A stretch of DNA of 64,000 nt. Origin: Acutalibacteraceae bacterium. Its GTDB lineage: Bacteria > Bacillota > Clostridia > Oscillospirales > Acutalibacteraceae. Each line of letters starts with the position of its first letter. The first letter of the stretch is position 1. The notes below the pieces were generated by a model that worked only from the letters and a program-made list of their open reading frames with translations, ran no database searches and was not told the origin of the DNA. The position numbers and the translations under genes were made by a program. This document shows, piece by piece, positions 2,782 to 61,174 of the stretch. The stretch lies in NCBI GenBank assembly GCA_045604105.1, contig JAZUNJ010000024.1, forward strand, positions 44,956-108,955, in the 5' to 3' direction.

Positions 2782-2825
2782 AAAATCCGTGGATCGGTTA
2801 TTCCCGTCCACGGATTTGTTTTATT
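2782..2825. terminator. Bidirectional intrinsic terminator between convergent LRR and TIR genes
   Basis: Stem aatccgtgga/tccacggatt, flanked by an A-run and a T-run. Confidence 0.65.
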
Positions 2826-5800: not shown

Positions 5801-5886
5801 AAATCATCGGGGTGGCAGCAAAAATAAACCTTGGGCTTACCCTGTGGATTTGAACCGCCTTTTGTTTTACAGCTAAGACTTGGCAT
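2821..5886 (-). CDS. Tandem TIR-domain protein with Sel1-like and long TPR repeat region (1021 aa)
   Basis: I chose the ATG at 5886 because AAGGAG lies 8 nt upstream; the GTG at 5895 lies inside that RBS. TIR-like domain 1 is KVYFCCHPDD...MQLFVMPVT...LEFCFAEEKHIPVLPI. TIR domain 2 is YIFLSYRKKDRIYA...IAIWYDEFLTPGENFNDSIEEALKKSELFALAVTPN...NVEYPMARKAGKTILP. A Sel1-like unit follows (FFIGLAYLSGIDVEVNHERAVKL...MYRNGEGVERNYDTAIEW). The remaining ~650 aa are TPR-like helical repeats. Confidence 0.75.
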   Translation of the reverse strand: MPSLSCKTKGGSNPQGKPKVYFCCHPDDFNRFFEDISDEIMFKQDCAFYYDSEPYGKTDKEDWLSYLGEMQLFVMPVTTKLLTTESKALSLEFCFAEEKHIPVLPIMQENGLEELFKQKIGSLQYLNRVSRDSTSISYEKKLESYLSSVLIGDELASKVRAAFDAYIFLSYRKKDRIYAQELMRLIHRNDFCRDIAIWYDEFLTPGENFNDSIEEALKKSELFALAVTPNIVNEENYVMNVEYPMARKAGKTILPAEIVSTDKNALKEKYKDIPDCADAHNEGELSQALLNSLKSIALRENDGDPEHNFFIGLAYLSGIDVEVNHERAVKLITSAANDNLPEALEKLVFMYRNGEGVERNYDTAIEWQEKLVAVFKARWKESQNYMNTMSLCVALLRLGDYHYEMFKSSSAIKIYSELHDFCEELYSSNKYLRDEALYFLAAASNNLGNAYRATEENELAARLYEKTIEVLEETVKESDSYDEKCDLCAGYSNLAYTLFMQNKNSKAEEMCQKAIDLALELISIKMDFTAMNFLSLSYNTMGDGLFGINRLDEAEQMYLKAVENDEKAVKIFPDSKSKNMLCRSLNNLGENYTYVGDFSKAEECHSKALSILTKLYSEDSAIETKINIFFTHKKLYQTFAHQSNFYEAEAEALKALKITNELIEETELPSLVTEAANIYGDLGDMYILLNDQEKAEQMYLKALKLLEDYKNKDYSLTTSSVLSKLGEMLINIGEIAKARPYCEKALKITEAYAETSEGFRGKDNLIISYNSMARIFEAEGNTDGSLEMYEKAFSISEAMASDSTNIEVQFIRAIICHNLGFMHLMRDDTVRAEQLFLKSIDMLKGLIEKTQSPAHKRIYSECYLKLALICFADENYEKAIQLSLTAKELYENVYAESRYIGDKASVVRTMITLANSYLYSEKADSAREILEKIFEIKETIPEDYNFTVAERNSLVQAKITLGIILQSKDILKEALSDAKELLRLMPDNEQLKELVRYCKRSLILNRIPFLQKWAFGIENEK

Positions 5887-6080
5887 TGACCTCACTCCTT
5901 GTGTGTAATGTGATAAAATTATATCATTGTTTGCTTTTGTTTACAATATAAAAAACAGCTCTATCGGAACAGAAAAGTGAGAAAAGGGCATCTTTTTGTA
6001 AAATAAAGTGTGAAATCCACTATGCCAAATGCGGCATTTTGTGGTACAATTAAAAAAACAGCAAAAAGGAAGGAAAAAGC

Positions 6081-18719: not shown

Positions 18720-18980
18720 AAGAAAACCTTCTTTCTGTGAAACTTCTTGTATATGATGCAGATAATATAACATACAAATGTTAATTTTTTGTTTACAAAT
18801 GAAGTGAATTACTCTTTTGTTGCAACGTTTTTATGTAAAATGTTTAAAAATTAGCAAAACAAAGGGAAGTGATTAATGAAAAATACACACAGTTAACAAA
18901 TAGTTCATAATTATGAGACTTTTAAGTGATATTTGAGTGATATCATATATTTATTAAAAAATATTAAAAGGACTGATATT

Positions 18981-20645
18981 ATGAAGAAGATTATTTCTGT
19001 TGTTCTGGCATTGGTTATTGCTTTTTCGTGCACTGTGACAGCCTTTGCCGGTATTGATCAGAATGCAACAAAAAGTACTGTTCCTGTTATCCGAATTTCC
19101 GGCGACGGTGACGCTCTTTATAACAGTGAGGGCGAAAAAGTTATGCATTTCAGAGGACTTCTCGAAAACAATGAGGATGACGACGATGATGATAACAGCG
19201 GAATTTATGAATCCATTGCAAATGTTCTTCTGCCCTTCCTCATTGAAGGTGTAGTATTTGACCAGTGGGATAATTATTACAATAACCTTCAGAAGGAAAT
19301 CGGCGACCTTTTCGGTGATGCACTTCTTGACAAAAACGGTGACCCCGTTAACGGAACAGGTCTTCCCCAAAACAGACTTGACGAAATGGAATACAACAAA
19401 AAAACAGACAAGGGCGCAGACAGAGGCTATTATAGATACAATGACTATTGGTTCCGTTATGACTGGCGTCTGGATCCCCTTTACACAGCTGATTTGTTTG
19501 ATGATTATGTCAGGAGCATCAAGACTGCGACAGGTGCAGACAAGGTTGCAATCATTTCAACCTGCCTTGGCACAAATGTTGTAACTGCATATGTTGCAAA
19601 ATACGGTCTTGATGATATTCACGGTATTACCTTTGACGGCGGTGTTGCTTACGGTGCTGAAATTCTCAGTGAAACAATCAGTGGTAAGTTTCAGCTCGAC
19701 GGCAATGCAATAGAAAGAGTTCTCATTGACTGCGCTAACTATGATCTTTTTGATGTAGGTAGCTTTGTTCTTGCAACTGTTGATCTTCTTACGTCAAGTG
19801 GCGCACTTGACGCTGTTAAGGGTGTTACCAAGGAATATATCTATTATAAGGTAATTGAGGGCGTAACCTCAGCCCTTGCTCTTTCGACCTTCTTCACATG
19901 GCCTAACTATTGGGCAGCTGTTACTGCTGAGGATTATGAAACTGCAATTGAGTATGTTTTCGGCGAAGAGGGCAGTGAAAAGTATAATGAATACGCAGGT
20001 CTCATTGAAAAGCTTGATGCATACGATGAGCTTGTACGTCAGCACATCCCTGAGATTATGCAGAGCATCAAGGATGCAGAGGTAAATCTCGGTATCATGG
20101 CAAAGTACGGCAGCCAGATGATTCCCGTGTGTGAGTCGTCAGACATGATTTCAGACCAGATTGCGTCTGTTCACAGAGCTTCCTACGGTGCAACAACCTC
20201 AACTGTTTATGAGCCTCTGCCCGAGGATTATATTGCCAGCAGGATTGAGGAGGGCTTCGGAAAATACATTTCACCCGATAAGCAGATTGATGCTTCCACC
20301 TGCATGTTCCCTGATTACACTTGGTTCTATAAGGGCGCAACTCACTCAAACTGGACAAGCTATGAAATGAAGATTATGTATGATGTTGCAACAGCAGACA
20401 GACAGCTCACCGTTGACGATTTTGAGTGGGGACAGTTTATTGTTTATGATAATGACACTGACACCGCTTATAAAATGGATGAGAACAACTGCCACACAGA
20501 AGCCTGGGAGGCTGACAAGGAGCAGGACGCTCCCAATACTCCCTATGCAAAGCTTTTCGTCTTCATCAAATCAGTTATTAACTGGTTCAGGGAGCTGTTC
20601 AGAATCCTTTCAGATAAGTTCGCAGCAAAGGAACCCACAGTATAA
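18981..20645 (+). CDS. Secreted LCAT-like alpha/beta-hydrolase-fold protein with C-terminal amphipathic tail
   Basis: Signal peptide MKKIISVVLALVIAFSCTVTAFAG. FRYDWRLDP...KVAIISTCLGTNVVTAYV aligns to the LCAT/PDAT family YDWRL and nucleophile-elbow region (from memory). The C-terminus is KLFVFIKSVINWFRELFRIL. Confidence 0.6.
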   Translation: MKKIISVVLALVIAFSCTVTAFAGIDQNATKSTVPVIRISGDGDALYNSEGEKVMHFRGLLENNEDDDDDDNSGIYESIANVLLPFLIEGVVFDQWDNYYNNLQKEIGDLFGDALLDKNGDPVNGTGLPQNRLDEMEYNKKTDKGADRGYYRYNDYWFRYDWRLDPLYTADLFDDYVRSIKTATGADKVAIISTCLGTNVVTAYVAKYGLDDIHGITFDGGVAYGAEILSETISGKFQLDGNAIERVLIDCANYDLFDVGSFVLATVDLLTSSGALDAVKGVTKEYIYYKVIEGVTSALALSTFFTWPNYWAAVTAEDYETAIEYVFGEEGSEKYNEYAGLIEKLDAYDELVRQHIPEIMQSIKDAEVNLGIMAKYGSQMIPVCESSDMISDQIASVHRASYGATTSTVYEPLPEDYIASRIEEGFGKYISPDKQIDASTCMFPDYTWFYKGATHSNWTSYEMKIMYDVATADRQLTVDDFEWGQFIVYDNDTDTAYKMDENNCHTEAWEADKEQDAPNTPYAKLFVFIKSVINWFRELFRILSDKFAAKEPTV

Positions 20646-46444: not shown

Positions 46445-48238
46445 ATGGATATCTGGAGTTTGTGCTTACTGTGTGCCATTGTTCTTCTTTGCTGTGGTGC
46501 AGCAGGGTGTTATATAGTTTCAAAAATGAAAAAGAAGCCTCTTGTGAATGCTCAGACCGTTTTTGCAGCAGGCATAGCACTTGCAAGCATTGTTGCTTTT
46601 TATCCGATATATAAGCATGCCTTCAGAGATGAGGGTCTTACCGTGCTTAATCATGCTCTTCTTTCCGTTCATAACACAATCCGTCTTTTTGTTGTGGACA
46701 GTGATTACAGCTTCATTTCGGAAAACCTTGTAGGTGTTGAGGGTGCTGTGGGCAAAGCATACAACATGCTCATGACAGTGTTATACATCATTGCTCCTGC
46801 AATGACCTTCGGCTTTGTGCTTTCCTTTTTCAAAAACCTTTCGGCATATAAAATAATGCTGTTCAAATTCAGAAGGAAGTTCTTTGTTTTCTCCGAGCTT
46901 AATGACGGCTCTCTTGCCCTTGCAAGTAATCTTAAAAAAGCAAACCCGAAAAGCCTGATCATATTCACGGATGTTTATGAAAAGGATGACGAATACTCCT
47001 TTGAGCTTAAGGAAAAAGCAGACGAGCTTAAGGCTATCTGCTTCAGAAAGGACATTACCGCCATACATTTCAACCTTCACAGCAAAAAATCCACCGTTGA
47101 TCTTTTCATTATCGGTGAGGATGAAGATGAAAATGTGAAGCAGGTATATGACCTTGCAGGAAGATATAACAAATACTCCAACATGGCACTGTATATTTTC
47201 TCTTCAAATGTTGAAAGCGGCTTCATCGTTAACACAATAGACAGAGGAAAGCTCAAAGTGAGAAGAATTGACACTGTCCGTTCACTTATTCAGGAAAATC
47301 TTTATGAAAATGGTTATAACTGCATTTTCAGTAAGGCAGAAGAAACAGATGAGGGCTACAAGAAGATTTCAGCTCTTGTGCTCGGTATGGGTAAGCATGG
47401 CACTGAAATGACAAAGGCTCTTCCCTGGTTCTGCCAGATGGACTCCTACCGTGCTTACATCAACTGCTTTGATGCTGATAAAAATGCAGAAAGCCGCTTT
47501 AAGGCACTTTGCCCTGAGCTTTATGATGAGGAGCACAACGGCAATTTTGAAAAATACGGTGAAGCTCAGTATAAGCTGAAGATTCACCCGGAAACGGATG
47601 TGCTTTCCAATGAGTTTTATGATAAGCTCAGAGAAATCGGAACCGTAACATATATTCTTGTGGCTTTGGGTGATGACGGACTCAACATTCAGCTTGCAAC
47701 AAATCTAAGGTCATATTATGCTGCAAAGGGTATGTATCCTGCCATTCAGGCAGTTGTTTATTCAACAGAAAAGAAGCGCACCTTCAGCAACATGTCAACC
47801 TTCAATAACCTGAAATATGACATTGATTTCATCGGTGACCTTGATTCAAAGTATTCGATTGATGTTGTGCTTAACAGTGACCTTGAAAACAAGTGTATTA
47901 TCCGACATGAGGATGCAAAAAGCACTGACGATTTCTGGAAGTATGAATACAACTACCGTTCATCAATCGCTTCCGTTATGCATCAGAGAATGAAGCGTCT
48001 TTGCAAAATTTCTGCAGCAAGCAAGTATAAAAAGGACAGAACAGCTGAGGAAGCTTATCAGTTCAGCGTAATTGAGCACAGAAGATGGAACGCATATATG
48101 CGAAGTGAGGGCTACTGCTGCGGTGAAGAAAAAAATCACCTTGCAAAAACTCACCCTTGCCTCATTGATTTTGAAGCACTCACTCCCGAGGACAGGGAAA
48201 AAGATAACTATGAGCTTGTTGAAGATGATATGATATAA
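46445..48238 (+). CDS. Membrane protein with cytoplasmic Rossmann-like region and C-terminal RyR-like domain
   Basis: About 4 N-terminal TM helices. The C-terminus (VIEHRRWNAYMRSEGYCCGEEKNHLAKTHPCLIDFEALTPEDREKD) resembles the bacterial RyR-domain pattern (H..W......GW..G.......HP.L..(Y/F)..L....K..D). Confidence 0.5.
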   Translation: MDIWSLCLLCAIVLLCCGAAGCYIVSKMKKKPLVNAQTVFAAGIALASIVAFYPIYKHAFRDEGLTVLNHALLSVHNTIRLFVVDSDYSFISENLVGVEGAVGKAYNMLMTVLYIIAPAMTFGFVLSFFKNLSAYKIMLFKFRRKFFVFSELNDGSLALASNLKKANPKSLIIFTDVYEKDDEYSFELKEKADELKAICFRKDITAIHFNLHSKKSTVDLFIIGEDEDENVKQVYDLAGRYNKYSNMALYIFSSNVESGFIVNTIDRGKLKVRRIDTVRSLIQENLYENGYNCIFSKAEETDEGYKKISALVLGMGKHGTEMTKALPWFCQMDSYRAYINCFDADKNAESRFKALCPELYDEEHNGNFEKYGEAQYKLKIHPETDVLSNEFYDKLREIGTVTYILVALGDDGLNIQLATNLRSYYAAKGMYPAIQAVVYSTEKKRTFSNMSTFNNLKYDIDFIGDLDSKYSIDVVLNSDLENKCIIRHEDAKSTDDFWKYEYNYRSSIASVMHQRMKRLCKISAASKYKKDRTAEEAYQFSVIEHRRWNAYMRSEGYCCGEEKNHLAKTHPCLIDFEALTPEDREKDNYELVEDDMI

Positions 48239-49245: not shown

Positions 49246-49281
49246 CAAAAAAGAACCCCCGAAGGATTTCCTTCGGGGGTT
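49246..49281 (-). terminator. Terminator of the giant gene
   Basis: The minus strand reads aacccccgaagg-aaatc-cttcgggggtt followed by cttttttg. Confidence 0.8.
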
Positions 49282-49292
49282 AATTCAGTTAA

Positions 49293-52200
49293 TCAGTTGA
49301 AAAGGTTTTTAAACCATTCAATGATCTTGTTGAACCATTCAATAATTCTCTGGAAGAAGGCGATGAGACCGTTAGGTGCAATACCTTCAGATGTGAGAAT
49401 ATCTTCAAAGTTCGTATCAAGGAACTGAGCAAGGAGATTACCGATAGTCTGCTCATTGGGATCGTCTGACATGCCGAGATCCTTGAGAATCTGCTGCCAC
49501 TGAGCATTGATATCCTTGAGGCCGCCGGCTGTTTCGCCAACACCGAGGTCTGCTCCGTAGAACAGATAGTAAAGTGTTGCGAGAGCCTTGTCCATGCCAA
49601 GGTATGTTTCTGTTGCGCATGTAGCAATTGTATCAAGAACACCTCTTACATACTTTTCGGCATCAGCAGTCATACCAAGATGATCTCTGAGGAGGCCGAG
49701 AAGTATTTCCTGATTATTTTCATGCATGATGAATGTAACAATCAGTCTCATTACAACTGTAACCATTTCAGTCTTTGCTTCTTCAGACTGATAAATCATT
49801 CTGTAAGCGGTCTTTCCGTTAGCTGATTCATAGGATACAAGAGTACCGATGGTAAGCTCGGAAACAGCGCTTGCATTGAGATTTTCAAATCTGTAGCCTG
49901 TTGCATCTGCAATCATGTCAAGAAGCATTTCGAAGAGCTTCTCGAATGTAAGAGTTGAAAGATCAAGGCCGATGATTTCGTAAAGGTCAATCTTAGCAAT
50001 GGGTTCAATTGCATCAAGAAGAGCGTAAACTGCATTGAGTGTATTCTTAACAACTGTGTCAACACCGTTTGAATTGATGAAGTAGATAAGGTTGGGAAGC
50101 ATTGAGAGAATCTCTTCAGCAGGATCAACCATAATTTCGTCTACTCTGTCAAGAAGGGGATTGAGAATTGAAGTAAGAAGTACATCACCGTTTGCCTCAA
50201 CAGCTGCATAGTAATCAGCAGGAGTCATAACGTTGTCGCATTCAAGAGTTTCAAGAAGAGGAATGATACCGTAAGCATAGCCTTCAGCACCTTCAAGCTT
50301 GATTGCGTCAACAGGACCGTTTGCACCTTCCTTGGCAAGAAGAGCGATATCTTCGTCAGCAAGTACCCACTTAAGAACGCCGTAGAGAGGTTCAAGAACA
50401 TCGCAAAGGCTTGCAACGAACTGAGCTCTGTCGTCTGTGAATTCGGGAACTTCAACCTTGGCAACTGCTGCGATATCTGCAATGCCGGCTGTCTTAAGAA
50501 CTGCGGCAATGTGCTTGCCAACGTTCTTGCCCTTAGCTTCAAGGTTAACAATTCCGTCAAGAACACCTGCGAGGGCGTCACGGATAGCAATTACGTTCTT
50601 GCTGTTGTAAAGTCCGCCGTTAATAAGCTCATCAATAAGCTCATTGAGGTTATCAATGCTTACACCGTTAATGTTGATACCGAGAAGGTAAATGATGTTG
50701 TTGATAAAATCACCAACATTGTCAGCAATGTACTGAGCCATTTCTTCAGTGTAAAGAGGACCGTATTTGTGGTTTGTGAGATAAAGCTTTGAGGATTCAA
50801 TTGCTGAGAATGCATAGCCTGTGTCTGCCTTATCAACAAACTTCCAATCGAATTCCTGAATGTCTGCAGGAACAACACCCTTATTGAAGATGTAATCGAT
50901 TACCTTATAAGCGTCTTCACCAACAAGGTCTTCAACGAAGTCTTTGTTTGCTGAATCTGCAAGGGTAAGAACGATGAGGTTAGCAAGAACTGTTACCATG
51001 TCGTACTTATCGAATTCATCAACATAAGTCATCTTCTTAGCAACGCTGATGCTTACTGAATCATATTCGTTAACCTGGCCGAGACCGAAGCCCACAAGAA
51101 CATTTTCAAGCTTTGTAAGGTCAAGACCTGTCATAAGTGAAACTGCCTGAAGGATATCCTTCATTGCAAGGTGGTCAAGGTCGATTGTTGCGCCCTTGCC
51201 CTCAATGTTCATAAGCTTCTGAAGGTTTACAAGCTCGTTGATGTCAACGTTCACACCTAATGCTTCAAGCTTTGTGAGAAGAACTGTGATAGCAGCAAGT
51301 GTGTTGTCAACCACTGCAGCAACACCGTTGGTGTTGAGGAAGTAGAGAAGGTTGGGAAGAAGTGCGATAACTTCTTCTACAGGATTTTCAAGAATTTCAT
51401 CAATGCGTGCTGCAAGAGAATTGAGAACGCCTGAAACGATTTCTTCTGTTGTTGTTTCAGCGCCGTAAACAGTGGGAAGGTTTTCACAGCCGAGTGCTTC
51501 AAGAAGAAGTGCAAGTCCTTCTGCATAACCCTGAGCACCGTTAATCACGATGAAGTCTACGGGAAGGTCGTTATCGTCAACATCCTTAACAAAGAATCTG
51601 TAATCGTTACCAAGAAGGAACCATTCAACAAGACCCTTAGCATAGGTGTTAAGAACATTTGCAAGCTCTGAAGCGAATGCGTCAACAGTTGTAATTCCTT
51701 CGGGAGCCTTGTAAGCCTTAAGACCCACAACATCAGCACCGAGAAGAACTCCTGCTGCGTCAAGAAGACCGTTGTCGATATCCTTAAGAAGATTTGCAAG
51801 AAGATCAACGACAGCCTGAAGGTTTTCGCTTGTGAATACGTTAACCTTGTCATTGAGAAGTGCGCTGAGTGAATCGTAGTTGCTGTCGATGAGAGAAGCA
51901 ACGAGGTCAGCAAGCTCAGGAAGGTTATCTGTCACATACTGTGCTGTTGCTTCGTTCCAGTTGTTGGGATAAGTAATAGCATACTTCATAGCATCAACTG
52001 TACCGTTGTCAGCAAGGGGATAGTCCCAATCGGGAACTGTATAGATGATTTCTACGTCTGCGAAAACATCCTTGAGAGCTGAGATGATTTCAGTGCCGAT
52101 CATTTCGTCAAGCTTTGCAGCGTTTTCTTCATCTTCAACTGCAACAAGAAGAGCAGCTGTCACAAGAACGGTAATCATATCGTGCTTGTCAAATTCGTCT

Positions 52201-55200
52201 GCATATTCCATCTTAGCAGTATAATCGAAGCTGCTTACTGAATCGTATGCAGTAACCTTACCAAGAGCAAAGCCTGTGAGTACATCCTTAAGAACTGTGA
52301 GATTAAGACCTGTAATTTCTGAAACGAGTTCAAGGATTGCTTCAATTGTAAGGTTGTCAAGGCCGATTGCGAGATCCTTTTCGATACCGCAGAGTTCTTC
52401 AATGTTAACAAGATCATCAAGAGTAATGTTAAGACCGAATGCCTTGAGCTTGAGAGCAAGGGCGTTGAATGCGCCTGCAAGGTTATTTACGGAAGCTGCA
52501 ACGCCGTTAGCGTTGAGGAAGTAAATAAGGTTGGGAAGAATGTCGAGAGCTCTTTCAACGGGAGAATTGAAGATTTCACCGATTCTTGCAGCAACTGACT
52601 TGAGAACTGCAACAACTACGTCTTCAGTCTTGAGGTTTTCAACACCGTAAACCTCGGGAAGGTTCTGACAGCCGAGAGCCTCAAGAAGGGGAGCAAGACC
52701 TTCAGCATAACCCTGAGCACCGTTGATTGTGATGATATCTGTGCCTTCAAGCTTTGTGCCCTTAGCGTCAACATCGTTAACGAAGAGCTTGATATCGTCG
52801 CCGAGAAGGAGCCATTCAACAACGCCCTTAGCATAGGTGTTAAGAACATTAGCAAGCTCAAGTGCGAATTCTTCAACAGTGTCAATTCCTTCGGGAGCCT
52901 TGTAAGCCTTGAGACCAACAAGATCAACCTTGAGAAGAACGCCGAGACTGAGAAGCTTATCGTCAACATTGCCAAGAAGCTTTGTGATAAGACCAACAAG
53001 GTCATCAAGAGTCTTTGAGGTGAATACGTCAACCTCTGACTTAAGAAGAGCTGCAAGTGAATCGTGGTCGCTTACCATGCCAACAACGATATCAACAAGA
53101 GCGGGAAGGTTGTCAGCAAGATACTGTGCCTTTTCTTCTGTCCAGTCGTTGGGATATGTGATTGCACTTTCAATTACTTCGATTGTACCTTCGTCATAGT
53201 TGATTTCACCGTTGAAGTAGTTGTAGTTGGGTTTAATATATTCAACGGGAGTGCTCTCGAATACTTCGTCAAGTGCTGAGATGATGTCAGTACCGATTGC
53301 CTTGTCAAGAGCTGCTGCGTTAGCTTCATCCTGAACAAAGATAAGAGCGATTGTAAGGATAATTGTAACAACGTCAGATTTTGCTGCGTCCATTCTGTAA
53401 ATGTAGTTGCCCTTTGTAATCTTACCTGTGCAGAAGTTTACAAGGTAATCTTCAACAACTGCAAAGTTGAATTCGGGAAGAACTGCTTCAAGAATTTCAA
53501 CAACATCAGCAAGTGAAAGCTCTTCAAGGTTAAGAACAAATTCAGTACCGTCTGCCTTCTTGAACTTGATAAGATCTGAAAGGCTTACGTTGAGACCGAA
53601 TGCCTGAAGCTTTGTAAGAAGAGCATTTACGGGAGCAAGAAGATTGCCGATTGCAACACCTGCGCCGTTTGCATTAAGGAAGTAGATAAGGTTGGGAAGA
53701 AGCTCAACAACTTCATCAACGGGCTTTTCAAGAATTTCGTCAACTCTTGCTGCAAGAGCACCGAGAACATTAGCAGTTGTTGCTTTTTCTGCGGTGGGAG
53801 CATCTGCACCGAGAGCTTCGAGAATGAGTGCAAGACCCTTTTCGTAGCCGTAGCCGCCGTTGATAACAATTGTATCGTTAAGGTCTGTCTTCTTAGCGAA
53901 TCTGTAGTCATCGCCGAAGAAGAGCCAGTTGATAAGACCGCCTGCATAGGTGTCAAGAACATTTGCAAGCTCTGCTGCGAATGCTTCTGTGAGTGTCTTA
54001 TCCTCGGTTGCAACGATTTCAGGTGCCTTATATGCCTTGAGACCGTTGATGTCAACATCAAGAAGTCTGCCGGCAGCTTCAATGAGGTTTGCATCAATAT
54101 CTTCAAGAAGACCTGTGATGAGACCAACAAGCTGATTGAGTGAATCAGCGGTAAGATAGCCGTTGAGAAGGTCTGAAAGAAGAGCTGAAACTGTTGCGGG
54201 AGCATCTGCCTTATCCTTATTGATAAGACCGATTACAAGGTCAGCAAGCTCGGGAAGGTTATCAGCGATATACTGTGCCTTTTCCTCAGTCCAGTCGTTG
54301 GGATACTCAAGTGCATAAAGAGTGTTGGGAAGGCCTGCGCCTGTTGCGATGTAAGCGTCAAGTGCTTCCTGTGAATCGAACCAGTAGTACCAGTTGGGTT
54401 CTGCATAATCAAATTCGCCAAGGTCAGCGAATACGCCTTCAAGCTTACTGATAATGTCAGTGCCGATAAGCTTGTCGAGTGCTGCAGCATTATTCGGCTT
54501 TGCACCCCATTCGAGAACGTATGAAAGAATTACTGTAAGAAGGTCATGTGCTTCGAAGTCATTATGGAATGCGCCCTTCTTCCATGTGCTGTTGAGAGTT
54601 GAAGCTGAATCATATTCAACACCGATGTGCTTACATACATCGTATACAAGTGTGCCGAGGAAATCGATATCAAGACCGAGAAGCTTATAAAGAAGGTCAA
54701 CAACAAAGTTGATATCAAGATGCTTAAGATCAATGTTAAGACCTGTGCTTTCAGTTGCAGTTTTAATCATTTCTGCAAGGTTGATATCGAAGAGAGGACG
54801 GATTGTGTCAAGCACTGCATAAACAGGAGTGAGGAGCTTGTCAACACCCTGTGAAAGTCCGTCGCTTGCGAGATAGTAGATAACACCGGGAATGCTGTCA
54901 AGCATATCCTTGATAGTGCTGTTGTACTTATTATTTGTGAGCCTTGCAAGTCTTGTAATAAGAGCATCAACAAGCTTTGCAAGTGCATCTTCATTTTCAC
55001 CAAGGGCAGTTACATTGTCACAGCCGAGAGCTTCAAGAAGGGGAACAATTGCATTGTCATAGCCCTTATAGCCCTGAAGTGTGATTGCACTGTCGATGAG
55101 AGTGAGATCCTTACCTGCAAAAATGAAGTCGATTGCAGGTCTGAAGGGAGCGAGAAGCTGAACAAGCTTTGCACCGAATGCTGCACCGTTGCCGTCTTCA

Positions 55201-58200
55201 AAGCCCCAGTTGTAATCGTCTGCAAGGTCCTTATACTGTGCAAACACTGCAAGGTCAATACCAAGCTCATCTTTAAGCAGAGCATTGATGTCGAATGCGG
55301 GAGCCTCGGCTTCGCCACCTTCTTCTGCAGTTTCAGTGTCACCTGCAAGAAGAGCGTTCAGGTCGAGACCTGCAAGGAGCTTTGCAAGAGCTGTGAGATT
55401 TGCATTTGAGTAAAGAGCATTGATTTTGCTTGCAAGCTCATCTTCAATGTCAAATGTTGATTCTGCATCTATGGTTTTGATGATGCCGCTTACAATAGCA
55501 TCAAGGTTGTCATAAAGGTATTCAGCCTTACCTTCTGTCCAGTCATTGTCATAGCTGAGATAGATTTCATCAGCAGGAGTCAGAGGTGTCTGAGTACCCT
55601 TTGAGCCGTCATACCAATAATATCCGCCAACGGGGTATTCGGTCTGGTTTGCAAGCTCAACAATTGCAGCAATTACATCGCCGACATCCATTTCGTCAAG
55701 ATTGAGATCTTCATAGATAACCTTCTTGAGACCGGCAATTGCTTCCTCGTCGGGAATTGTCTTGCCGTTGGCGTCTTTGATAGCTACACCGTTTTCATCC
55801 TTCTGAGTCATGAACAGACCAAGGAGGCTTGTAAGTGCTGCTTCATCCTTAACTGCGTTAAGAATGTATGAAAGAAGGTAATAGCCTACGCCTGCCTTGT
55901 CAGCAACGATTGTGTAAGCTTCACCTGCGTTAACGCCGGAATAGATAGCTGCTTTTCTTCCGGTTGAAACCTTTGTGAGTTTACCGAGAGTTGCAAGAGT
56001 TGTCTGGTCGATTGCGGGAAGCTCAAGACCGAAGTTTGAAAGCAGTGAGTTAATACCGCCTGCAAACATGCTTTCGGGAAGAAGAGCACCTTCGTCACTT
56101 GTGATAAGAATATCACCAAGGAAGATATCAACGCCGTCACTGACAACTGTTACAGCACCGCCGCCGATAACACCGGCCTTGTACCATACCTTTGTTGTAA
56201 GGTTGTTAAGAAGAGGCTTAACCATACCGAATGCAAGAGCATAAACAAGGTTGGGAAGAATTCCGAGAATTGTGTCAACGGGCTTTTCACCGAGAGTTTC
56301 AAGGAATGTGAAAATAGGCTTGAGAATTTCTTTAAGAACATAAGCAATGTCATCGTTGCCTTCAATTGATGCCACCGGGGTGTAAGGAACACCGAGAAGC
56401 TCATAAATGGGAACAAGAGTGTTAGCATAACCGGGGTTACCGTATGCACCAAGATCAAGTGTTACGTTAAGAACAAGTGCATGAGCAAACTGAAGAATAC
56501 TGTCGGGTTCCCAGTTAATGTTTGTGATAAGAGCTGTCAGAAGAGGCTTGATACCTTCTGCTGCATCAGCAAATACTTCATAGAACTTAGCTTCTCTTTC
56601 TTCAAGATCTTCAATTTCATCAATACCCCAGACGAACTTGAGTTTGCCTGTTTCTGTGTCAAGAATGTGAACTGATGTCCATGAATCGTCATAACCACCT
56701 GCTGCCTTAAGCATAGCAACTGTTTCGGGATATTTTGTTTCATCAAGAACACCTGCGAGAAGGTCAGGATAAAGCTCAAGACCTGTTTCTTTACATACAG
56801 TGTAGAAGTCCTTATTGTATGTAACCTTCATACCTGATGCTTCAGAGGGAAGGTTTGAGAAAGCCTTTGTGAACTCATTGAGAACAAGAGGATAAAGCAG
56901 CTGAATAAATGTGTTGATGAAGTCATCCTTAAACAGGAAGCCCTTTACAGTGTCTGAAAGCAAGGCACCGATGTCAAGAGCGCTTCCGTCTTCGTTGATA
57001 AGTGAGCCGACAAGGTCACTTGTGATGATAGTGTCAAGGTCATTTACAAGGTTAAGAAGATTCTGCTCTGTAACTTCGTAAGCATCCTTTCTGACTTCAT
57101 CATTGGGATAAACGTCACGGTCTTCATAATCGATAACTGTCTGCTCATAATCAGCAAAACCGAAGGTTGTAGCATATCTGCAGTACTCATAATAAATTTC
57201 ATCAAAGTATGCATTATATGTGTTCATTGTGTCTGCGCTGATATATGAACCCTTACCTTCATTGTTGAGGTAATCCTGGATACCGTCGCTCTTACCCTTA
57301 TTGTTGGTTGCATCATCATCATAGTTTTCTGCATGATAAAGCTTATCCCAACCGTCTTCGAGGGGAACAACAACAGCTTTAAGCTTGAGATATGACATCA
57401 TGTCAAGAGTAGTGGGTCTTTCAAGCTCGTTGTAAACAGCATCAACAGCATTTACCTGAGCTGTGAAACGGTCTGCAAGAAGTCTGTAAAGACCGTCGAG
57501 CATGTTGTCAGCATCAGTTCTGATCTGACCGAGAAGAAGATCTCTTCTGGCGTAAGTGAGTGTGTTATAGAACTCGTCAAGGCCTAATTTCTGTTCCTTG
57601 ACTTCCTGAATCTTTGCATAAACATCTTCTGTTTTGAGGCCAACAAAAGACTTGTGAGCATTTTCTGCAAAGTAAAGAACATACTCATTGATTTCGCACT
57701 TCAGTTCTTCCTGAAGGTCAAGAAGATATACATAGCCTTCACTGTAAACAGCATTGATTACCTGAAGCTCGCCGCCTCTTGCATTTGAACGGTATGTACC
57801 GATTGCGTTGATGTAACCTGAAATTTCTGAATAGAGGCTCTGCTGTTCAACTGTTTCATAGTCCTTGTAAGTATCCTTGTAAGTATTATAGAAGTTGTCT
57901 GCAGCATTTCTGCTGTCGTTAAGGTAGTATACCTGATAGTTATCTGTGAAGTTGTAGAGATAGTTCATATCGATATCGCCGTTGTTAACGAAATAGTCGA
58001 GAACTGTACCACCTGCTACAAGTGCATCGTAGTAGCCCATGAAGGTAAGGTAATCAGCTTCCATCTTTGCATGTGTGGCTGAACCCTTTTCACCAAAAGC
58101 ACCCCAGTTATTTGCACCGCCGCCTTCACCCCAGCTGAATACACCGTATGAGGGGTTAGCTGCTATAAAATTCTTATAGTTTTCAACTATGGGAAGGAAT

Positions 58201-59249
58201 TCCTGCATATCTTTTGCAGACTGAATTGAAGCCTTCTGTGTTGCAACTGCTGTTGCAAATGAACCGAAGAGCTTGCTATAGGTTGAAGCGCCGCCGACAT
58301 AAGTCTGTGTGCTTGCAACAGCTGCATCAAAATCTGAAAGGAAGGTGTCGATTGTGCCGTTATTTACCTTTGCAAGAAGATCATCAAAGCTTACTGATGT
58401 GAAAGCATTGATAGCTGCTGCATGAGCATCAACGGTTGTTTTTGCTGCTGTGTTTGAATTCTGATTATAAGCGGGTGCTGAGGGAGGAGTCTGCACATAG
58501 TTGTGGAAACGCCAATAGGTTGTCAGACCGGATTTCGAAGTATAATAGCCTCTGGTCATTGCAAAAACATATTTAACACCGAGATCAATTGTTGATTCAA
58601 CATTTGTGTATGCACCGATTGAATCAAGATAGCCCTTGTATGCTTCATCCTTGGCTTTGATAATGAGTGTGTTAGTGTGGTTTGCGGGAGTTGTTGAAGA
58701 AGAGGGATTACTTAAAAGGGGCTTCCTCTTTTCCTCATAGTCGTCGTGCTGTCTTGCCTTTGAGTCGTCAAGAACAAGCTTGAGGAAGTACACTACAGGC
58801 TCAGTCATTGTACAACCGTATTTGGGAAGCTTTTTCTCAAATTCAGTGTACATATGCGTTGCACTTGTGCATGTTCTTGTTGCTGCGTCACCTGAACCGG
58901 TCTTTCCGATTTCTTCAGAAGCCATAATTGCTTCATGGAAGAGAGCAACAAGATTTTTAAGTGTTGCGTACTGATGGTATGTGTTAACTGTGAGTGTTGT
59001 TGTGTTAACAATGTTATTGGTGCTGCCGGCACTACCTGTTGCAGCGGTGTTGCCGTAAGAACCAAAATCTTTGTTATACACCTGCGCAAGAACATCTGAG
59101 CTGTTCTTGAGTGCATTGGCGAAAGTTTCAAACTTTGTGTCATCCGCCGCTGCGGCTGTAAAGCTGATAGTGCCAAAGCAAACGCTCATGCTTGACATAA
59201 TCATAATTACAGCAAGCAGAACGCTTAAAAGTTTTTTGGTAACTTTCAT
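49293..59249 (-). CDS. Giant secreted repeat protein (3318 aa), six ~400-aa modules, unknown function
   Basis: RBS ggagga and signal peptide (MKVTKKLLSVLLAVIMIMSSMSVCFGTISFTAAAA). The reading frame is uninterrupted. Repeated cores are YPNDWTEEKAQY(I/L)ADNLP, GLKAYKAPE, ING(A/G)xGYxxGLxxLLEALGC and LLPNLIYFLNANG. The C-terminal tail is IAFFQRIIEWFNKIIEWFKNLFN. A strong terminator lies downstream. Confidence 0.85.
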   Translation of the reverse strand: MKVTKKLLSVLLAVIMIMSSMSVCFGTISFTAAAADDTKFETFANALKNSSDVLAQVYNKDFGSYGNTAATGSAGSTNNIVNTTTLTVNTYHQYATLKNLVALFHEAIMASEEIGKTGSGDAATRTCTSATHMYTEFEKKLPKYGCTMTEPVVYFLKLVLDDSKARQHDDYEEKRKPLLSNPSSSTTPANHTNTLIIKAKDEAYKGYLDSIGAYTNVESTIDLGVKYVFAMTRGYYTSKSGLTTYWRFHNYVQTPPSAPAYNQNSNTAAKTTVDAHAAAINAFTSVSFDDLLAKVNNGTIDTFLSDFDAAVASTQTYVGGASTYSKLFGSFATAVATQKASIQSAKDMQEFLPIVENYKNFIAANPSYGVFSWGEGGGANNWGAFGEKGSATHAKMEADYLTFMGYYDALVAGGTVLDYFVNNGDIDMNYLYNFTDNYQVYYLNDSRNAADNFYNTYKDTYKDYETVEQQSLYSEISGYINAIGTYRSNARGGELQVINAVYSEGYVYLLDLQEELKCEINEYVLYFAENAHKSFVGLKTEDVYAKIQEVKEQKLGLDEFYNTLTYARRDLLLGQIRTDADNMLDGLYRLLADRFTAQVNAVDAVYNELERPTTLDMMSYLKLKAVVVPLEDGWDKLYHAENYDDDATNNKGKSDGIQDYLNNEGKGSYISADTMNTYNAYFDEIYYEYCRYATTFGFADYEQTVIDYEDRDVYPNDEVRKDAYEVTEQNLLNLVNDLDTIITSDLVGSLINEDGSALDIGALLSDTVKGFLFKDDFINTFIQLLYPLVLNEFTKAFSNLPSEASGMKVTYNKDFYTVCKETGLELYPDLLAGVLDETKYPETVAMLKAAGGYDDSWTSVHILDTETGKLKFVWGIDEIEDLEEREAKFYEVFADAAEGIKPLLTALITNINWEPDSILQFAHALVLNVTLDLGAYGNPGYANTLVPIYELLGVPYTPVASIEGNDDIAYVLKEILKPIFTFLETLGEKPVDTILGILPNLVYALAFGMVKPLLNNLTTKVWYKAGVIGGGAVTVVSDGVDIFLGDILITSDEGALLPESMFAGGINSLLSNFGLELPAIDQTTLATLGKLTKVSTGRKAAIYSGVNAGEAYTIVADKAGVGYYLLSYILNAVKDEAALTSLLGLFMTQKDENGVAIKDANGKTIPDEEAIAGLKKVIYEDLNLDEMDVGDVIAAIVELANQTEYPVGGYYWYDGSKGTQTPLTPADEIYLSYDNDWTEGKAEYLYDNLDAIVSGIIKTIDAESTFDIEDELASKINALYSNANLTALAKLLAGLDLNALLAGDTETAEEGGEAEAPAFDINALLKDELGIDLAVFAQYKDLADDYNWGFEDGNGAAFGAKLVQLLAPFRPAIDFIFAGKDLTLIDSAITLQGYKGYDNAIVPLLEALGCDNVTALGENEDALAKLVDALITRLARLTNNKYNSTIKDMLDSIPGVIYYLASDGLSQGVDKLLTPVYAVLDTIRPLFDINLAEMIKTATESTGLNIDLKHLDINFVVDLLYKLLGLDIDFLGTLVYDVCKHIGVEYDSASTLNSTWKKGAFHNDFEAHDLLTVILSYVLEWGAKPNNAAALDKLIGTDIISKLEGVFADLGEFDYAEPNWYYWFDSQEALDAYIATGAGLPNTLYALEYPNDWTEEKAQYIADNLPELADLVIGLINKDKADAPATVSALLSDLLNGYLTADSLNQLVGLITGLLEDIDANLIEAAGRLLDVDINGLKAYKAPEIVATEDKTLTEAFAAELANVLDTYAGGLINWLFFGDDYRFAKKTDLNDTIVINGGYGYEKGLALILEALGADAPTAEKATTANVLGALAARVDEILEKPVDEVVELLPNLIYFLNANGAGVAIGNLLAPVNALLTKLQAFGLNVSLSDLIKFKKADGTEFVLNLEELSLADVVEILEAVLPEFNFAVVEDYLVNFCTGKITKGNYIYRMDAAKSDVVTIILTIALIFVQDEANAAALDKAIGTDIISALDEVFESTPVEYIKPNYNYFNGEINYDEGTIEVIESAITYPNDWTEEKAQYLADNLPALVDIVVGMVSDHDSLAALLKSEVDVFTSKTLDDLVGLITKLLGNVDDKLLSLGVLLKVDLVGLKAYKAPEGIDTVEEFALELANVLNTYAKGVVEWLLLGDDIKLFVNDVDAKGTKLEGTDIITINGAQGYAEGLAPLLEALGCQNLPEVYGVENLKTEDVVVAVLKSVAARIGEIFNSPVERALDILPNLIYFLNANGVAASVNNLAGAFNALALKLKAFGLNITLDDLVNIEELCGIEKDLAIGLDNLTIEAILELVSEITGLNLTVLKDVLTGFALGKVTAYDSVSSFDYTAKMEYADEFDKHDMITVLVTAALLVAVEDEENAAKLDEMIGTEIISALKDVFADVEIIYTVPDWDYPLADNGTVDAMKYAITYPNNWNEATAQYVTDNLPELADLVASLIDSNYDSLSALLNDKVNVFTSENLQAVVDLLANLLKDIDNGLLDAAGVLLGADVVGLKAYKAPEGITTVDAFASELANVLNTYAKGLVEWFLLGNDYRFFVKDVDDNDLPVDFIVINGAQGYAEGLALLLEALGCENLPTVYGAETTTEEIVSGVLNSLAARIDEILENPVEEVIALLPNLLYFLNTNGVAAVVDNTLAAITVLLTKLEALGVNVDINELVNLQKLMNIEGKGATIDLDHLAMKDILQAVSLMTGLDLTKLENVLVGFGLGQVNEYDSVSISVAKKMTYVDEFDKYDMVTVLANLIVLTLADSANKDFVEDLVGEDAYKVIDYIFNKGVVPADIQEFDWKFVDKADTGYAFSAIESSKLYLTNHKYGPLYTEEMAQYIADNVGDFINNIIYLLGININGVSIDNLNELIDELINGGLYNSKNVIAIRDALAGVLDGIVNLEAKGKNVGKHIAAVLKTAGIADIAAVAKVEVPEFTDDRAQFVASLCDVLEPLYGVLKWVLADEDIALLAKEGANGPVDAIKLEGAEGYAYGIIPLLETLECDNVMTPADYYAAVEANGDVLLTSILNPLLDRVDEIMVDPAEEILSMLPNLIYFINSNGVDTVVKNTLNAVYALLDAIEPIAKIDLYEIIGLDLSTLTFEKLFEMLLDMIADATGYRFENLNASAVSELTIGTLVSYESANGKTAYRMIYQSEEAKTEMVTVVMRLIVTFIMHENNQEILLGLLRDHLGMTADAEKYVRGVLDTIATCATETYLGMDKALATLYYLFYGADLGVGETAGGLKDINAQWQQILKDLGMSDDPNEQTIGNLLAQFLDTNFEDILTSEGIAPNGLIAFFQRIIEWFNKIIEWFKNLFN
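49600..57000 (-). repeat. Six tandem ~1.16-1.37 kb coding modules inside the giant gene
   Basis: LPN(L)(I/V)Y-encoding segments recur at about 50085, 51350, 52525, 53685, 54885 and 56255. (Y)PNDWTE-type segments recur at about 50760, 51960, 53150, 54295 and 55545. Outer boundaries are approximate. Confidence 0.8.
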
Positions 59250-59302
59250 TTTGTTTCCTCCATTTAGAGTTTTTGTATAAAACGAATTTATACTCTTGTT
59301 TT

Positions 59303-59391
59303 CTGCTGAAAAGCTTCAGCGGTTTTTCAGCCACCGGAGTAGCTGGTTTTTAGCTACCGGAGCAGCTGTTTTTTGCTGAAAAATTTTCAGC
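59303..59391. repeat. Cluster of two GCTGAA/TTCAGC palindromes flanking a 17-nt direct repeat, each unit separated by T5-6
   Basis: ctgctgaaaagcttcagcgg (59303-59322), cagccaccggagtagctgg, agctaccggagcagctg and gctgaaaaattttcagc (59375-59391). The cluster lies 55-140 nt upstream of the giant gene start. Confidence 0.7.
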
Positions 59392-59532
59392 ATGCCAATG
59401 GTATAAACCATTGTGTCTTAAACAATAAGACAGGGGATAAATACGTTTTTGTCTTTGAATCGCCTCCTTGTTTTTACCGATTGTATTGCATTGAAGTCCA
59501 TAAAATACGGACTTCCACATATATACATGCAT

Positions 59533-59688: not shown

Positions 59689-59728
59689 ATAATTGTGTAT
59701 AATTTTAAGCTTCCGGGAGGAATTGATT

Positions 59729-61174
59729 ATGAAGTCTGTTATGAAGAAAACACTTGCACTGCTTCTTGCACTGGTTCTCAGCTTCAGCGTAACAACTGTT
59801 GCTCTTGGTGCACTTGGTACGGGCGGTGTTATGAAAAGCTACTCGGCAACCTCAATTGAGGATTTCCATGCCGAAGAATTTGAGGGGAGAATAGGAAGAA
59901 TAATCTTCCTCAACCTTTCTGAAGAAGATTTCCCTGATAATGTTACATATGTTGCTGAAATGGACCTTTCCGCAAGTGAGGACACAGGTACCGTAACAGC
60001 AAAGCTTGTTCTTAGCCAGAACATTGCAGGCATTAATAACCTTGATATGTATATCGGTGCCTATGACGGTGTAATTGCCCCTGCAGACTGCTCCTATCTT
60101 TTTGCAGAAACAGGCGTCAGAGAGGTTATTGGCCTTGAAAATTTTGACACCTCAGGTGTAACAAGCATGAAGGCTATGTTCAAAAACTGCGGACTTCGTG
60201 AGTTCAATCTTGATGATTTCGGCGATACCTCCAATGTAAGAGACATGTCCTTTATGTTCAACGATTGCTGGTATCTTGAAAAAATCACAGCCCAAAGCTT
60301 TGATACTTCATCCGTTTCACACTTTGAGCATATGTTTGCAGGCTGTTCAGCTCTTACTGAATTCAAGGTGAAAAACCTTGACCTTTCATCTGCATCTGAC
60401 CTTAATTACATGTTCTATGAATGTGTTCTTCTCACTGAGGCTGACCTCAGCACATGGAAAAACACGTCAGGCATGGTAAGCGTAAATGCTTTCAGAAACT
60501 GTCCTGCACTCGAAACCGTAAAGCTCAGCAACTGGGATCTTTCATCACTTGTAACCCTTGACGGCATTTTTGCTGCCTGTGCTGCTCTTACTGATGTGTA
60601 TCTTTGCGGTGTTACTCAGCCGACCGGCTTTTCATCATCATGGGATAATCCTCTCAAGGGTACAGACGGAATTAATGTGCACACAGATGATATCGATTTC
60701 ACCTCAACACCTCTTTGGAAGGACTGCTTTGGTAAGGGTATTGACGTGAATGTTGTTTATGAGCTCAATGATACTGCTGATATGGTAAATATTGACTTCG
60801 AAAGAAACGAAGCAGTTGAGTATTACACTGTAACAGTAAACGGCGATGTGAGAACCATCTATGGCGGCTCATCGATGAACATCAGAAAAGGTACCGAAAT
60901 TGCAATTGATATCAAAGCTTCAGAAGAAGCAAATCCCATGTCACTGAATGTGAACGGCGGTATATTCGATTTCGGCACATCCTTCACTGTTGAATGTGAC
61001 ACCACCGTTTCAATTCAGACCTACCACGACACAACACCCATCGTGCCCGACAAGGCAGAGCAGACTCTCACCGGTGCAATTTTTGCAATCAGAGATTTCA
61101 TAAACAGAATCATCGATATTCTTCAGGGCTTCTTCGGAAGATTCATGCCCTGGATACCGGAAGTTGAAGAATAA
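59729..61174 (+). CDS. Secreted BspA-family/DUF285-type leucine-rich-repeat surface protein with C-terminal amphipathic tail
   Basis: RBS gggagg and signal peptide. DUF285-like repeats are present (FDTSGVTSMKAMFKNC; GDTSNVRDMSFMFNDC; FDTSSVSHFEHMFAGC; LSSASDLNYMFYEC). The C-terminus is AIFAIRDFINRIIDILQGFFGRF. Confidence 0.75.
   Translation: MKSVMKKTLALLLALVLSFSVTTVALGALGTGGVMKSYSATSIEDFHAEEFEGRIGRIIFLNLSEEDFPDNVTYVAEMDLSASEDTGTVTAKLVLSQNIAGINNLDMYIGAYDGVIAPADCSYLFAETGVREVIGLENFDTSGVTSMKAMFKNCGLREFNLDDFGDTSNVRDMSFMFNDCWYLEKITAQSFDTSSVSHFEHMFAGCSALTEFKVKNLDLSSASDLNYMFYECVLLTEADLSTWKNTSGMVSVNAFRNCPALETVKLSNWDLSSLVTLDGIFAACAALTDVYLCGVTQPTGFSSSWDNPLKGTDGINVHTDDIDFTSTPLWKDCFGKGIDVNVVYELNDTADMVNIDFERNEAVEYYTVTVNGDVRTIYGGSSMNIRKGTEIAIDIKASEEANPMSLNVNGGIFDFGTSFTVECDTTVSIQTYHDTTPIVPDKAEQTLTGAIFAIRDFINRIIDILQGFFGRFMPWIPEVEE

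Follow-up and report, generated by a model that had tools for sequence, protein, structure and literature searches.

The question raised by this locus is what role is played by a protein of 3318 residues in an uncultured gut bacterium of the Acutalibacteraceae (Oscillospirales, Clostridia), encoded by a single open reading frame (ORF) on the reverse strand of the 64,000-nt stretch of DNA analysed here (the window). The reading preferred here, to which we assign a probability of roughly 0.55, is that the protein is a fibril on the cell surface, exported by Sec and attached through its C-terminus, in which a stalk of variable length carries a distal head that evolves fast. The N-terminal signal peptide would direct the giant protein through Sec, and a C-terminal aromatic amphipathic helix of 27 residues would hold it on the cell, most likely by lying in-plane in the outer leaflet of the cytoplasmic membrane or, alternatively, by binding to an envelope component. 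Six paralogous alpha/beta modules of ~400 amino acids (aa) would constitute the stalk, with the number of modules (3 to ~21 family-wide) setting its length, and the distal head of ~680 aa would make a lineage-specific contact with a substrate, a host surface, another cell or a phage. The initial annotation had described a secreted protein that probably forms an envelope or extracellular structure. Export is supported by the Sec signal peptide, and an envelope or extracellular role is kept as the best reading from the signal peptide and the conserved tail, but the tail would probably retain the protein on the cell rather than allow its release.

The frame of the giant ORF stays open for 9.96 kb in DNA of 42% GC, and the intact reading frame, ribosome-binding site, signal peptide and strong terminator noted initially were all seen, as GGAGG, a Sec-type N-terminus and a 12-bp stem followed by a T-run, respectively (Table 1). 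The leader folds with a minimum free energy of -66.3 kcal/mol (fold z-score -6.1); its exact palindrome has no second occurrence within the window, and an Rfam scan of the window and of the leader gave no family match. The gene, with a long leader and a terminator of its own, stands by itself. At the N-terminus, MKVTKKLLSVLLAVIMIMSSMSVCFGTISFTAAAA/DD constitutes a signal peptide of the Sec type, which lacks YSIRK and is the sole segment of the protein hydrophobic enough for a transmembrane (TM) helix. The mature protein has a mass of ~359 kDa and a pI of 4.2 and contains 12.9% Leu, 10.6% Ala, 8.3% Asp and 6.5% Asn, in agreement with the acidic composition rich in these four residues that had been described.

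Modules were delimited by piecewise BLASTP against the whole protein, MAFFT alignment and a module hidden Markov model (HMM), which gave a plan of a ~680-aa head, six co-linear modules (383–518 aa; M1 to M6) and a tail of ~90 aa. M3 to M5 share 47–60% identity with one another at the protein level, and M1, M2 and M6 share 25–35% identity with M3 to M5, with E-values down to 1e-69. The module (~395 aa) is characterised by the signature PNDW..AxY, G-x-x-G-Y-x-x-G-L-x-P-L-L-E-A-L-G and LPNLxYF, present in tandem and followed by an FFQKI-type tail, and has four invariant residues (F96, G145, Y149 and E158). The six co-linear modules of ~400 aa that had been reported were thus recovered by both BLASTP and the module HMM, with the unique N-terminal region corrected from ~750 to ~713 aa and the period from 1.16–1.37 kb to 1.15–1.25 kb (M2 to M5) and 1.55 kb (M1). 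The motifs assigned to every module are real, but GLKAYKAPE and PN[DN]W occur in exact form only in M3 to M5, while LLEALG[CA] and LPNLxYF are recognisable in 4–6 of the modules. In DNA, identity between the modules does not exceed 70% over 1 kb, with a longest exact repeat of 27 nt; homologues from independent assemblies carry 4–7 modules in the same order, and one distant family member is met again on many contigs, as a cluster of 62 members. Mis-assembly of the repeats is therefore very unlikely. Since the module motifs are conserved family-wide, purifying selection is indicated, and the low identity between modules, together with retention of the array across homologues, supports the earlier proposal of a duplication that is probably old and under selection.

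No known domain or fold was recognised along the protein. The whole sequence gave nothing above noise against Pfam, NCBIfam and PDB sequences; 42 diverse modules scanned singly against Pfam revealed no recurrent family; 12 distant family members (46,000 residues) contained no Pfam domain; and the module profile had no match among PDB sequences. The absence of LPXTG, dockerin, RTX, Ig, SLH and cohesin signatures, remarked upon earlier, was borne out in the giant protein, and no cohesin, dockerin or CBM match to Pfam was obtained with the protein, the 42 modules or the 12 distant members. An AlphaFold2 model of M4, built from the 42-module alignment, reached a predicted local distance difference test (pLDDT) score of 82.6 and a predicted template modelling (pTM) score of 0.81. 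It comprises ~55% helix, two beta-hairpins and a few short terminal strands, so that the repeat, first described as helical, is indeed largely helical but of mixed alpha/beta type. Foldseek searches with this model found no neighbour, the best E-values being 3.6 for PDB and 0.31 for BFVD. Because it models confidently and has neither a sequence nor a structural neighbour, the module, unrecognised at first inspection as well, is a candidate for both a new fold and a new Pfam family. Arrayed in tandem, such modules would form an extended stalk.

The protein belongs to a sizeable family. A word-index protein search returned 43 relatives besides the query (2428–3931 aa), none with a Pfam domain, and an exhaustive search of 1.84 billion representative proteins with the module profile returned 577 at E ≤ 1e-3, of which 367 were at E ≤ 1e-30, reaching 7691 aa and ~21 module matches. 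Among the 187 sequences retrieved the architecture is constant, with a signal peptide, a head of 700–1200 aa, 3–21 modules and a tail of ~100 aa. Named members are annotated as "hypothetical protein" from metagenome-assembled genomes (MAGs) of Clostridia or Acutalibacteraceae; close relatives in species-representative genomes come from Acutalibacteraceae and Oscillospiraceae MAGs, and one contig title gives dairy-cattle rectum as the source. Word-index protein searches with the tail and head profiles yielded only five short fragments and two fragments, respectively, which probably reflects a limit of the index and has no bearing on distribution. Some genomes contain two paralogues, and copy number per genome is probably underestimated because several homologous contigs end inside the gene. 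Two matching loci on separate contigs were observed in single MAGs for the pairs L008/L011 (JAZNRU), L009/L015 (JAZOVO) and L016/L018 (JAZKYQ).

The evidence for retention on the cell comes from the C-terminus. Family members share a conserved 27-aa tail consensus, PNGxIxFFQKIxxFFxKIxxFFKNLF (187 retrieved members), which is covered by no Pfam or NCBIfam model and of which no mention was found in the literature searched. In the window protein, the terminal helix has a hydrophobic moment of 0.72, the highest of all 18-residue windows in the protein (top 0.03%), with a low mean hydrophobicity, a combination that points to a surface-seeking rather than membrane-spanning helix. In 8 of the 187 members (P0139, P0147, P0148, P0174, P0183, P0184, P0185 and P0187), all of them distant, the amphipathic helix is replaced by a type I membrane anchor consisting of a TM helix, KKKK and an acidic cytoplasmic tail. 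A sortase-substrate reading was rejected, as LPXTG was found in the last 60 aa of none of the 187 members. The replacement by a TM helix and the conservation of the tail suggest that the tail anchors the giant protein on the cell.

The same kind of tail is present on proteins unrelated to the giant. When metagenomes were searched with a degenerate DNA pattern encoding FFQKIxx[FW]FxNLF, 80 matches were obtained. In 24 of these the match is in frame with an ORF of at least 60 aa and lies no more than 8 codons from its stop, against a rough expectation of 2–3 for random placement. The giant module is lacking from 22 of these 24 ORFs, the other two belonging to the giant family. A Sec-type signal peptide was observed in 12 of the 18 whose N-terminus was inspected, and surface-protein domains (LRR_5/BspA, Flg_new, Big_2, PKD, transglutaminase-like and PG_binding_1) in 7 of the 10 that were scanned, the other three having no domain match. 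In several of the proteins a linker rich in Ser, Gly, Pro and acidic residues, resembling the wall-spanning regions that precede known anchors, directly adjoins the tag. When 37 genes of the window are ranked by the hydrophobic moment at the C-terminus, the first three places are taken by the giant, the divergent DUF285/LRR_5 neighbour and the exported 570-aa protein, all three with the same kind of signal peptide. That the tail is a new tag, in wide use, for anchoring proteins to the membrane or envelope, and that the module is a new stalk fold, is, as a joint proposition, plausible at somewhat less than even odds.

Variants and relatives of the tail were also observed. In P0082, P0100 and P0101 an amphipathic helix (FFFKIANFFRRLFG) is followed by C-E-C-G-x-x-H-[WY] at the extreme C-terminus, a variant found as well on a Cys-rich 1738-aa protein without modules that adjoins a giant gene (L013, 107–5323, forward strand). 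A D-x-x-C-D-x-C-G motif lies just ahead of the tail in several tag-bearing metagenome proteins. Small proteins with a signal peptide and the ending FFQKIxxWFRNLF occur on L025, L034, L066, L073, L092 and L094, the contig names of which suggest groundwater, marine and other non-gut samples; judged from these names, the tag may extend well beyond gut Clostridia.

At the opposite end, the head evolves faster than the remainder of the protein. Identity of the window protein to 42 homologues is 23–41% for most in the head, 29–61% in M1, 31–56% in M2 and 48–76% in the last module plus tail. Conservation is moreover mosaic: P0002 shares 81% identity in the head and 55% in the base, compared with 29% and 76%, respectively, for P0030. 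The heads of the family nevertheless form one transitive homology cluster. A conserved C-terminal base proximal to the cell and an exposed head would give a fast-evolving, apparently exchangeable N-terminal end, as is seen, and the pairing of a variable head with a conserved base suggests an interaction surface specific to the lineage, by which the head would bind something. An AlphaFold model of the head (aa 34–716; pLDDT 84, pTM 0.61) shows a beta-rich subdomain followed by helices of up to 44 residues, and Foldseek against PDB gave no significant neighbour (best E = 0.38). The possibility that the head is a degenerate module was discarded on the basis of an hhalign probability of 0.1.

Several points weigh against the interpretation as a fibril with a distal head. 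The extended geometry of the stalk is an assumption, and the head shows no recognisable binding fold in the Foldseek search. Length switching at the strain level, as in Periscope proteins, does not apply because the repeats are old. The tail, given the a/d/e/g spacing of its hydrophobic residues, could be an oligomerisation helix, or it could be a docking peptide. Further points concern the N-terminus. The Cys of SVC in the signal peptide is kept in 62 of 141 family N-termini, and at 8 of ~12 homologous loci, namely the two listed in Table 1 and L002, L003, L006, L008, L010 and L017, the nearest gene upstream, in the same orientation, is that for prolipoprotein diacylglyceryl transferase (lgt, PF01790). 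There are two copies of lgt in L002 and L010, and the gene is found even at loci whose genes farther upstream are different. Lipidation of the N-terminus would tether the protein at both ends, in which case the head would lose its distal position.

An envelope scaffold tethered at both ends, by a lipidated signal-peptide Cys (or an uncleaved signal peptide) and by the C-terminal helix on the membrane, would account for these N-terminal features; it would form an arch or a membrane-parallel structural coat or spacer in the wall zone, with no projecting head. Conservation of the motif SMSVCFG is higher than is usual in a signal peptide, the Cys is replaced by G or S in each of the eight TM-anchored members, and a very large, acidic protein without a recognisable binding domain would suit such a role. 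When the N-termini were tested for a Gram-positive lipobox ([LVI][ASTVI][GAS]C at the end of the signal peptide), however, the window protein failed, since its M-S-V-C has Val at -1, where Ala, Gly or Ser is needed, and the lipoprotein reading was rejected for it. The pattern was found in 21 of the 141 N-termini, and 42 have no Cys at all. In addition, an A-x-A signal peptidase I site lies 10 residues after the Cys, no lgt adjoins the giant gene at the window locus, and the conservation gradient and the mosaicism of the head better suit an exposed tip. Tethering at both ends is therefore considered unlikely. Concerning the substituted Cys, all eight TM-anchored members carry SVG or SAG, which may be phylogenetically non-independent, and ~70% of the members other than these have a Cys in the hydrophobic region.

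A different role for the modules, as docking sites, is improbable. In its wider form, the tail would be an undescribed surface-display signal of many exported proteins in gut Clostridia and others, and the modules would be its receptors, giving a display system of the cohesin-dockerin kind in which the giant is the scaffold and tagged LRR, Flg_new and hydrolase proteins, two of them encoded in the window, are the cargo. That the modules receive the C-terminal tag of other exported proteins and of the giant itself is quite improbable as well. The repetition of modules with conserved motifs (G-x-x-G-Y-x-x-G-L-x-P-L-L-E-A-L-G and LPNLIYFLN) and invariant residues would be consistent with receptors, as would the modular occurrence of the tag on many unrelated exported proteins and the inclusion of ruminant-gut bacteria among the hosts. 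Most of the conserved module positions, however, are hydrophobic or Gly, as in a structural core, and the tag is interchangeable with a TM anchor. By contig names, it also occurs in groundwater, marine and sludge metagenomes, where no giant-module protein was seen, and the giant family accounts for only 2 of the 24 tag-bearing ORFs.

A released effector or membrane-active toxin, in which the amphipathic C-terminus and the long helical head would insert into target membranes, is very unlikely. It would make use of the strong amphipathicity of the terminal helix, and Foldseek matched the head to the alpha-pore-forming proteins AhlB, SmhB and MakA, but at E = 1.3–4.4 with a probability of at most 0.08, which is noise, and a ClyA-type likeness of the head was accordingly rejected. 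No RTX, large clostridial or ClyA-type toxin domain was matched by the giant protein in Pfam or PDB sequences, no toxin, immunity or secretion genes lie nearby, the neighbourhood being housekeeping and variable between species, the tag is common to ordinary adhesin-type proteins, and the TM-anchored homologues cannot be released. That the gene is an assembly artefact or a non-functional ORF, as might be suspected from the presence of the exact protein on a single contig and from the homologous contigs ending inside the gene, can be dismissed, given the long open frame with its ribosome-binding site, signal peptide and terminator, the divergence between modules, and 43 homologues from independent assemblies with co-linear modules and motifs under purifying selection.

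The surroundings of the gene are those of an ordinary chromosome of a sporulating Firmicute, with SpoIVB, FtsEX with a PcsB-like M23 peptidase, CtpA, a TagF-like transferase, holB and PSP1, and nothing around the giant gene within the window suggested a phage, a plasmid or a defence system. A conserved operon was considered and rejected, as neighbourhoods differ between species and the sole recurrent neighbour is lgt. Three other products of the window may be mentioned. A 1024-aa protein (2821–5895, reverse strand) has a TIR_2 domain (aa 170–262) followed by long TPR arrays and resembles an NLR-like or anti-phage defence protein; a 741-aa protein (16548–18773, reverse strand) has no Pfam match; and a 597-aa protein (46445–48238, forward strand) has N-terminal hydrophobic segments and only a sub-threshold match to the RyR domain.

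Table 1. Positions of the giant gene, the parts of its product and associated features (window coordinates, except for the lgt genes, which are given on their own loci)
Feature	Position (nt)	Strand	Details
Whole ORF, 3318 aa plus stop	49293..59249	-	Uninterrupted frame, 9.96 kb
Candidate promoter of giant gene	59561-59533	-	
5' leader of giant gene	59250..59480	-	About six short hairpins, palindromes of the GCUGAAAA/UUUUCAGC type
Ribosome-binding site GGAGG	59257..59261	-	7 nt 5' of ATG
Signal peptide, aa 1-35	59145..59249	-	Signal peptidase I predicted to cleave after TAAAA; includes conserved SMSVCFG
N-terminal head, aa 36-713	57111..59144	-	Beta-rich subdomain, then long helices; fastest-evolving; unrelated to modules
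Module 1 (M1), aa 714-1231	55557..57110	-	Divergent, with insertions; BLASTP, MAFFT, HMM
Module 2 (M2), aa 1232-1649	54303..55556	-	BLASTP, MAFFT, HMM
Module 3 (M3), aa 1650-2032	53154..54302	-	BLASTP, MAFFT, HMM
Module 4 (M4), aa 2033-2427	51969..53153	-	Modelled with AlphaFold2
Module 5 (M5), aa 2428-2829	50763..51968	-	BLASTP, MAFFT, HMM
Module 6 (M6), aa 2830-~3228	49566..50762	-	Module HMM; with the tail, the most conserved part between homologues
C-terminal tail, aa 3229-3318	49296..49565	-	
Terminal aromatic amphipathic helix, aa 3292-3318	49296..49376	-	PNGLIAFFQRIIEWFNKIIEWFKNLFN; candidate surface-retention tag
Intrinsic terminator of giant gene	49254..49281	-	12-bp stem with 8 GC pairs, then T-run
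Divergent DUF285/BspA-LRR (LRR_5) exported protein	59693-61174	+	Related aromatic amphipathic C-terminus ...GAIFAIRDFINRIIDILQGFFGRFMPWIPEVEE
Exported 570-aa protein	18933-20645	+	No Pfam match; aromatic amphipathic C-terminus ...AKLFVFIKSVINWFRELFRILSDKFAAKEPTV
lgt genes of homologous loci	L001 8983-9819; L019 7008-7844		Just upstream of giant gene

As a giant modular surface protein the product is of a known kind, but no description of its head, its anchor tag or the fold of its modules was found in the libraries or literature searched. Gut and rumen Clostridia encode at least 577 representative proteins, the longest of 7.7 k residues, that are without a relative in Pfam, NCBIfam or PDB along their entire length. 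The tag looks like a general, uncurated way of retaining exported proteins on the cell, and a new class of anchor, if true, would improve predictions of the surface proteome in the Oscillospirales, which are dominant in animal guts and for the most part have not been cultured.

An established class of surface fibrils combines a head at the distal end with a stalk of repeats and an anchor at the C-terminus (PMC9210967, PMC8201768), and about half of the predicted fibrillar adhesins have no recognised anchor (PMC9210967). Compared with the features by which such adhesins are recognised (PMC9210967), the window protein is very long and exported (3318 aa, Sec-type signal peptide) and has six tandem modules, none of which is a known stalk domain. 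No known distal adhesive domain was detected in the head by Pfam, NCBIfam, PDB or Foldseek, its position and fast evolution being the only features that fit, and in place of a recognised surface anchor (LPXTG, SLH, LysM, CWB2 and the like), none of which was found as a Pfam anchor domain, there is the candidate amphipathic tail. SasG, Aap and Sgo_0707, fibrillar adhesins or Periscope proteins (PMC9210967, PMC8201768, PMC9999234), likewise have a distal N-terminus, a stalk of variable copy number, a C-terminal anchor and a faster-evolving tip, but their stalks consist of beta-sandwich folds of ~70–130 aa and their anchors are mostly LPXTG. Periscope repeats are nearly identical in DNA and vary between strains, whereas copy number here varies between species-level homologues. 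The giant proteins of gut megaplasmids described in one paper, also considered, are unrelated S-layer/MBG proteins.

For the tag, the nearest comparison is with the BspA-LRR, Flg_new, Big_2 and PKD proteins of the metagenomes (L076, L091, L068, L051, L043 and L034), which share the style of Sec-type signal peptide and a C-terminus of the FFQKIxxFFKNLF type with the giant but have ectodomains of known families and no 400-aa module; the tails of tagged LRR/Flg_new-type proteins are often a single 13-residue unit, in comparison with about two units (27 aa) in the giant. Among characterised anchors, a C-terminal amphipathic helix serves as the membrane anchor of E. coli PBP5 (DacA). An in-plane anchor of this kind is known from pestivirus Erns (PMC4536213). 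Erns and PBP5 are exported proteins held on the extracytoplasmic face of the membrane by a terminal amphipathic helix, as would be the case here, but have no sequence relationship to the giant, and the aromatic, heptad-like FFxxIxxFF pattern is distinctive to the tail described here.

Because the domains that define fibrillar adhesins, Periscope proteins and Embp are absent, the giant protein is an analogue of these systems, not a member. Its closest analogue is probably Embp/Ebh of staphylococci (PMC7587433, PMC9302970), a giant alpha-helical surface protein with a predicted C-terminal TM region (PMC7587433). The repeats of Embp are 125–170 aa long and form paired three-helix bundles (FIVAR/GA), known from Pfam and crystal structures, whereas the modules here are ~400 aa, combine helices with two beta-hairpins and match nothing in Pfam or PDB; the window protein also lacks YSIRK and DUF1542 and ends in an amphipathic helix that is not hydrophobic enough for a TM segment. 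In other respects the two are alike: they are acidic, Sec-exported giants of hundreds of kDa to 1 MDa, with many tandem, largely alpha-helical repeats of low sequence identity and conserved secondary structure, and in both the anchor would lie at the C-terminus and not be LPXTG, being predicted as a TM region in Embp and present as a TM helix in the eight distant relatives of the window protein.

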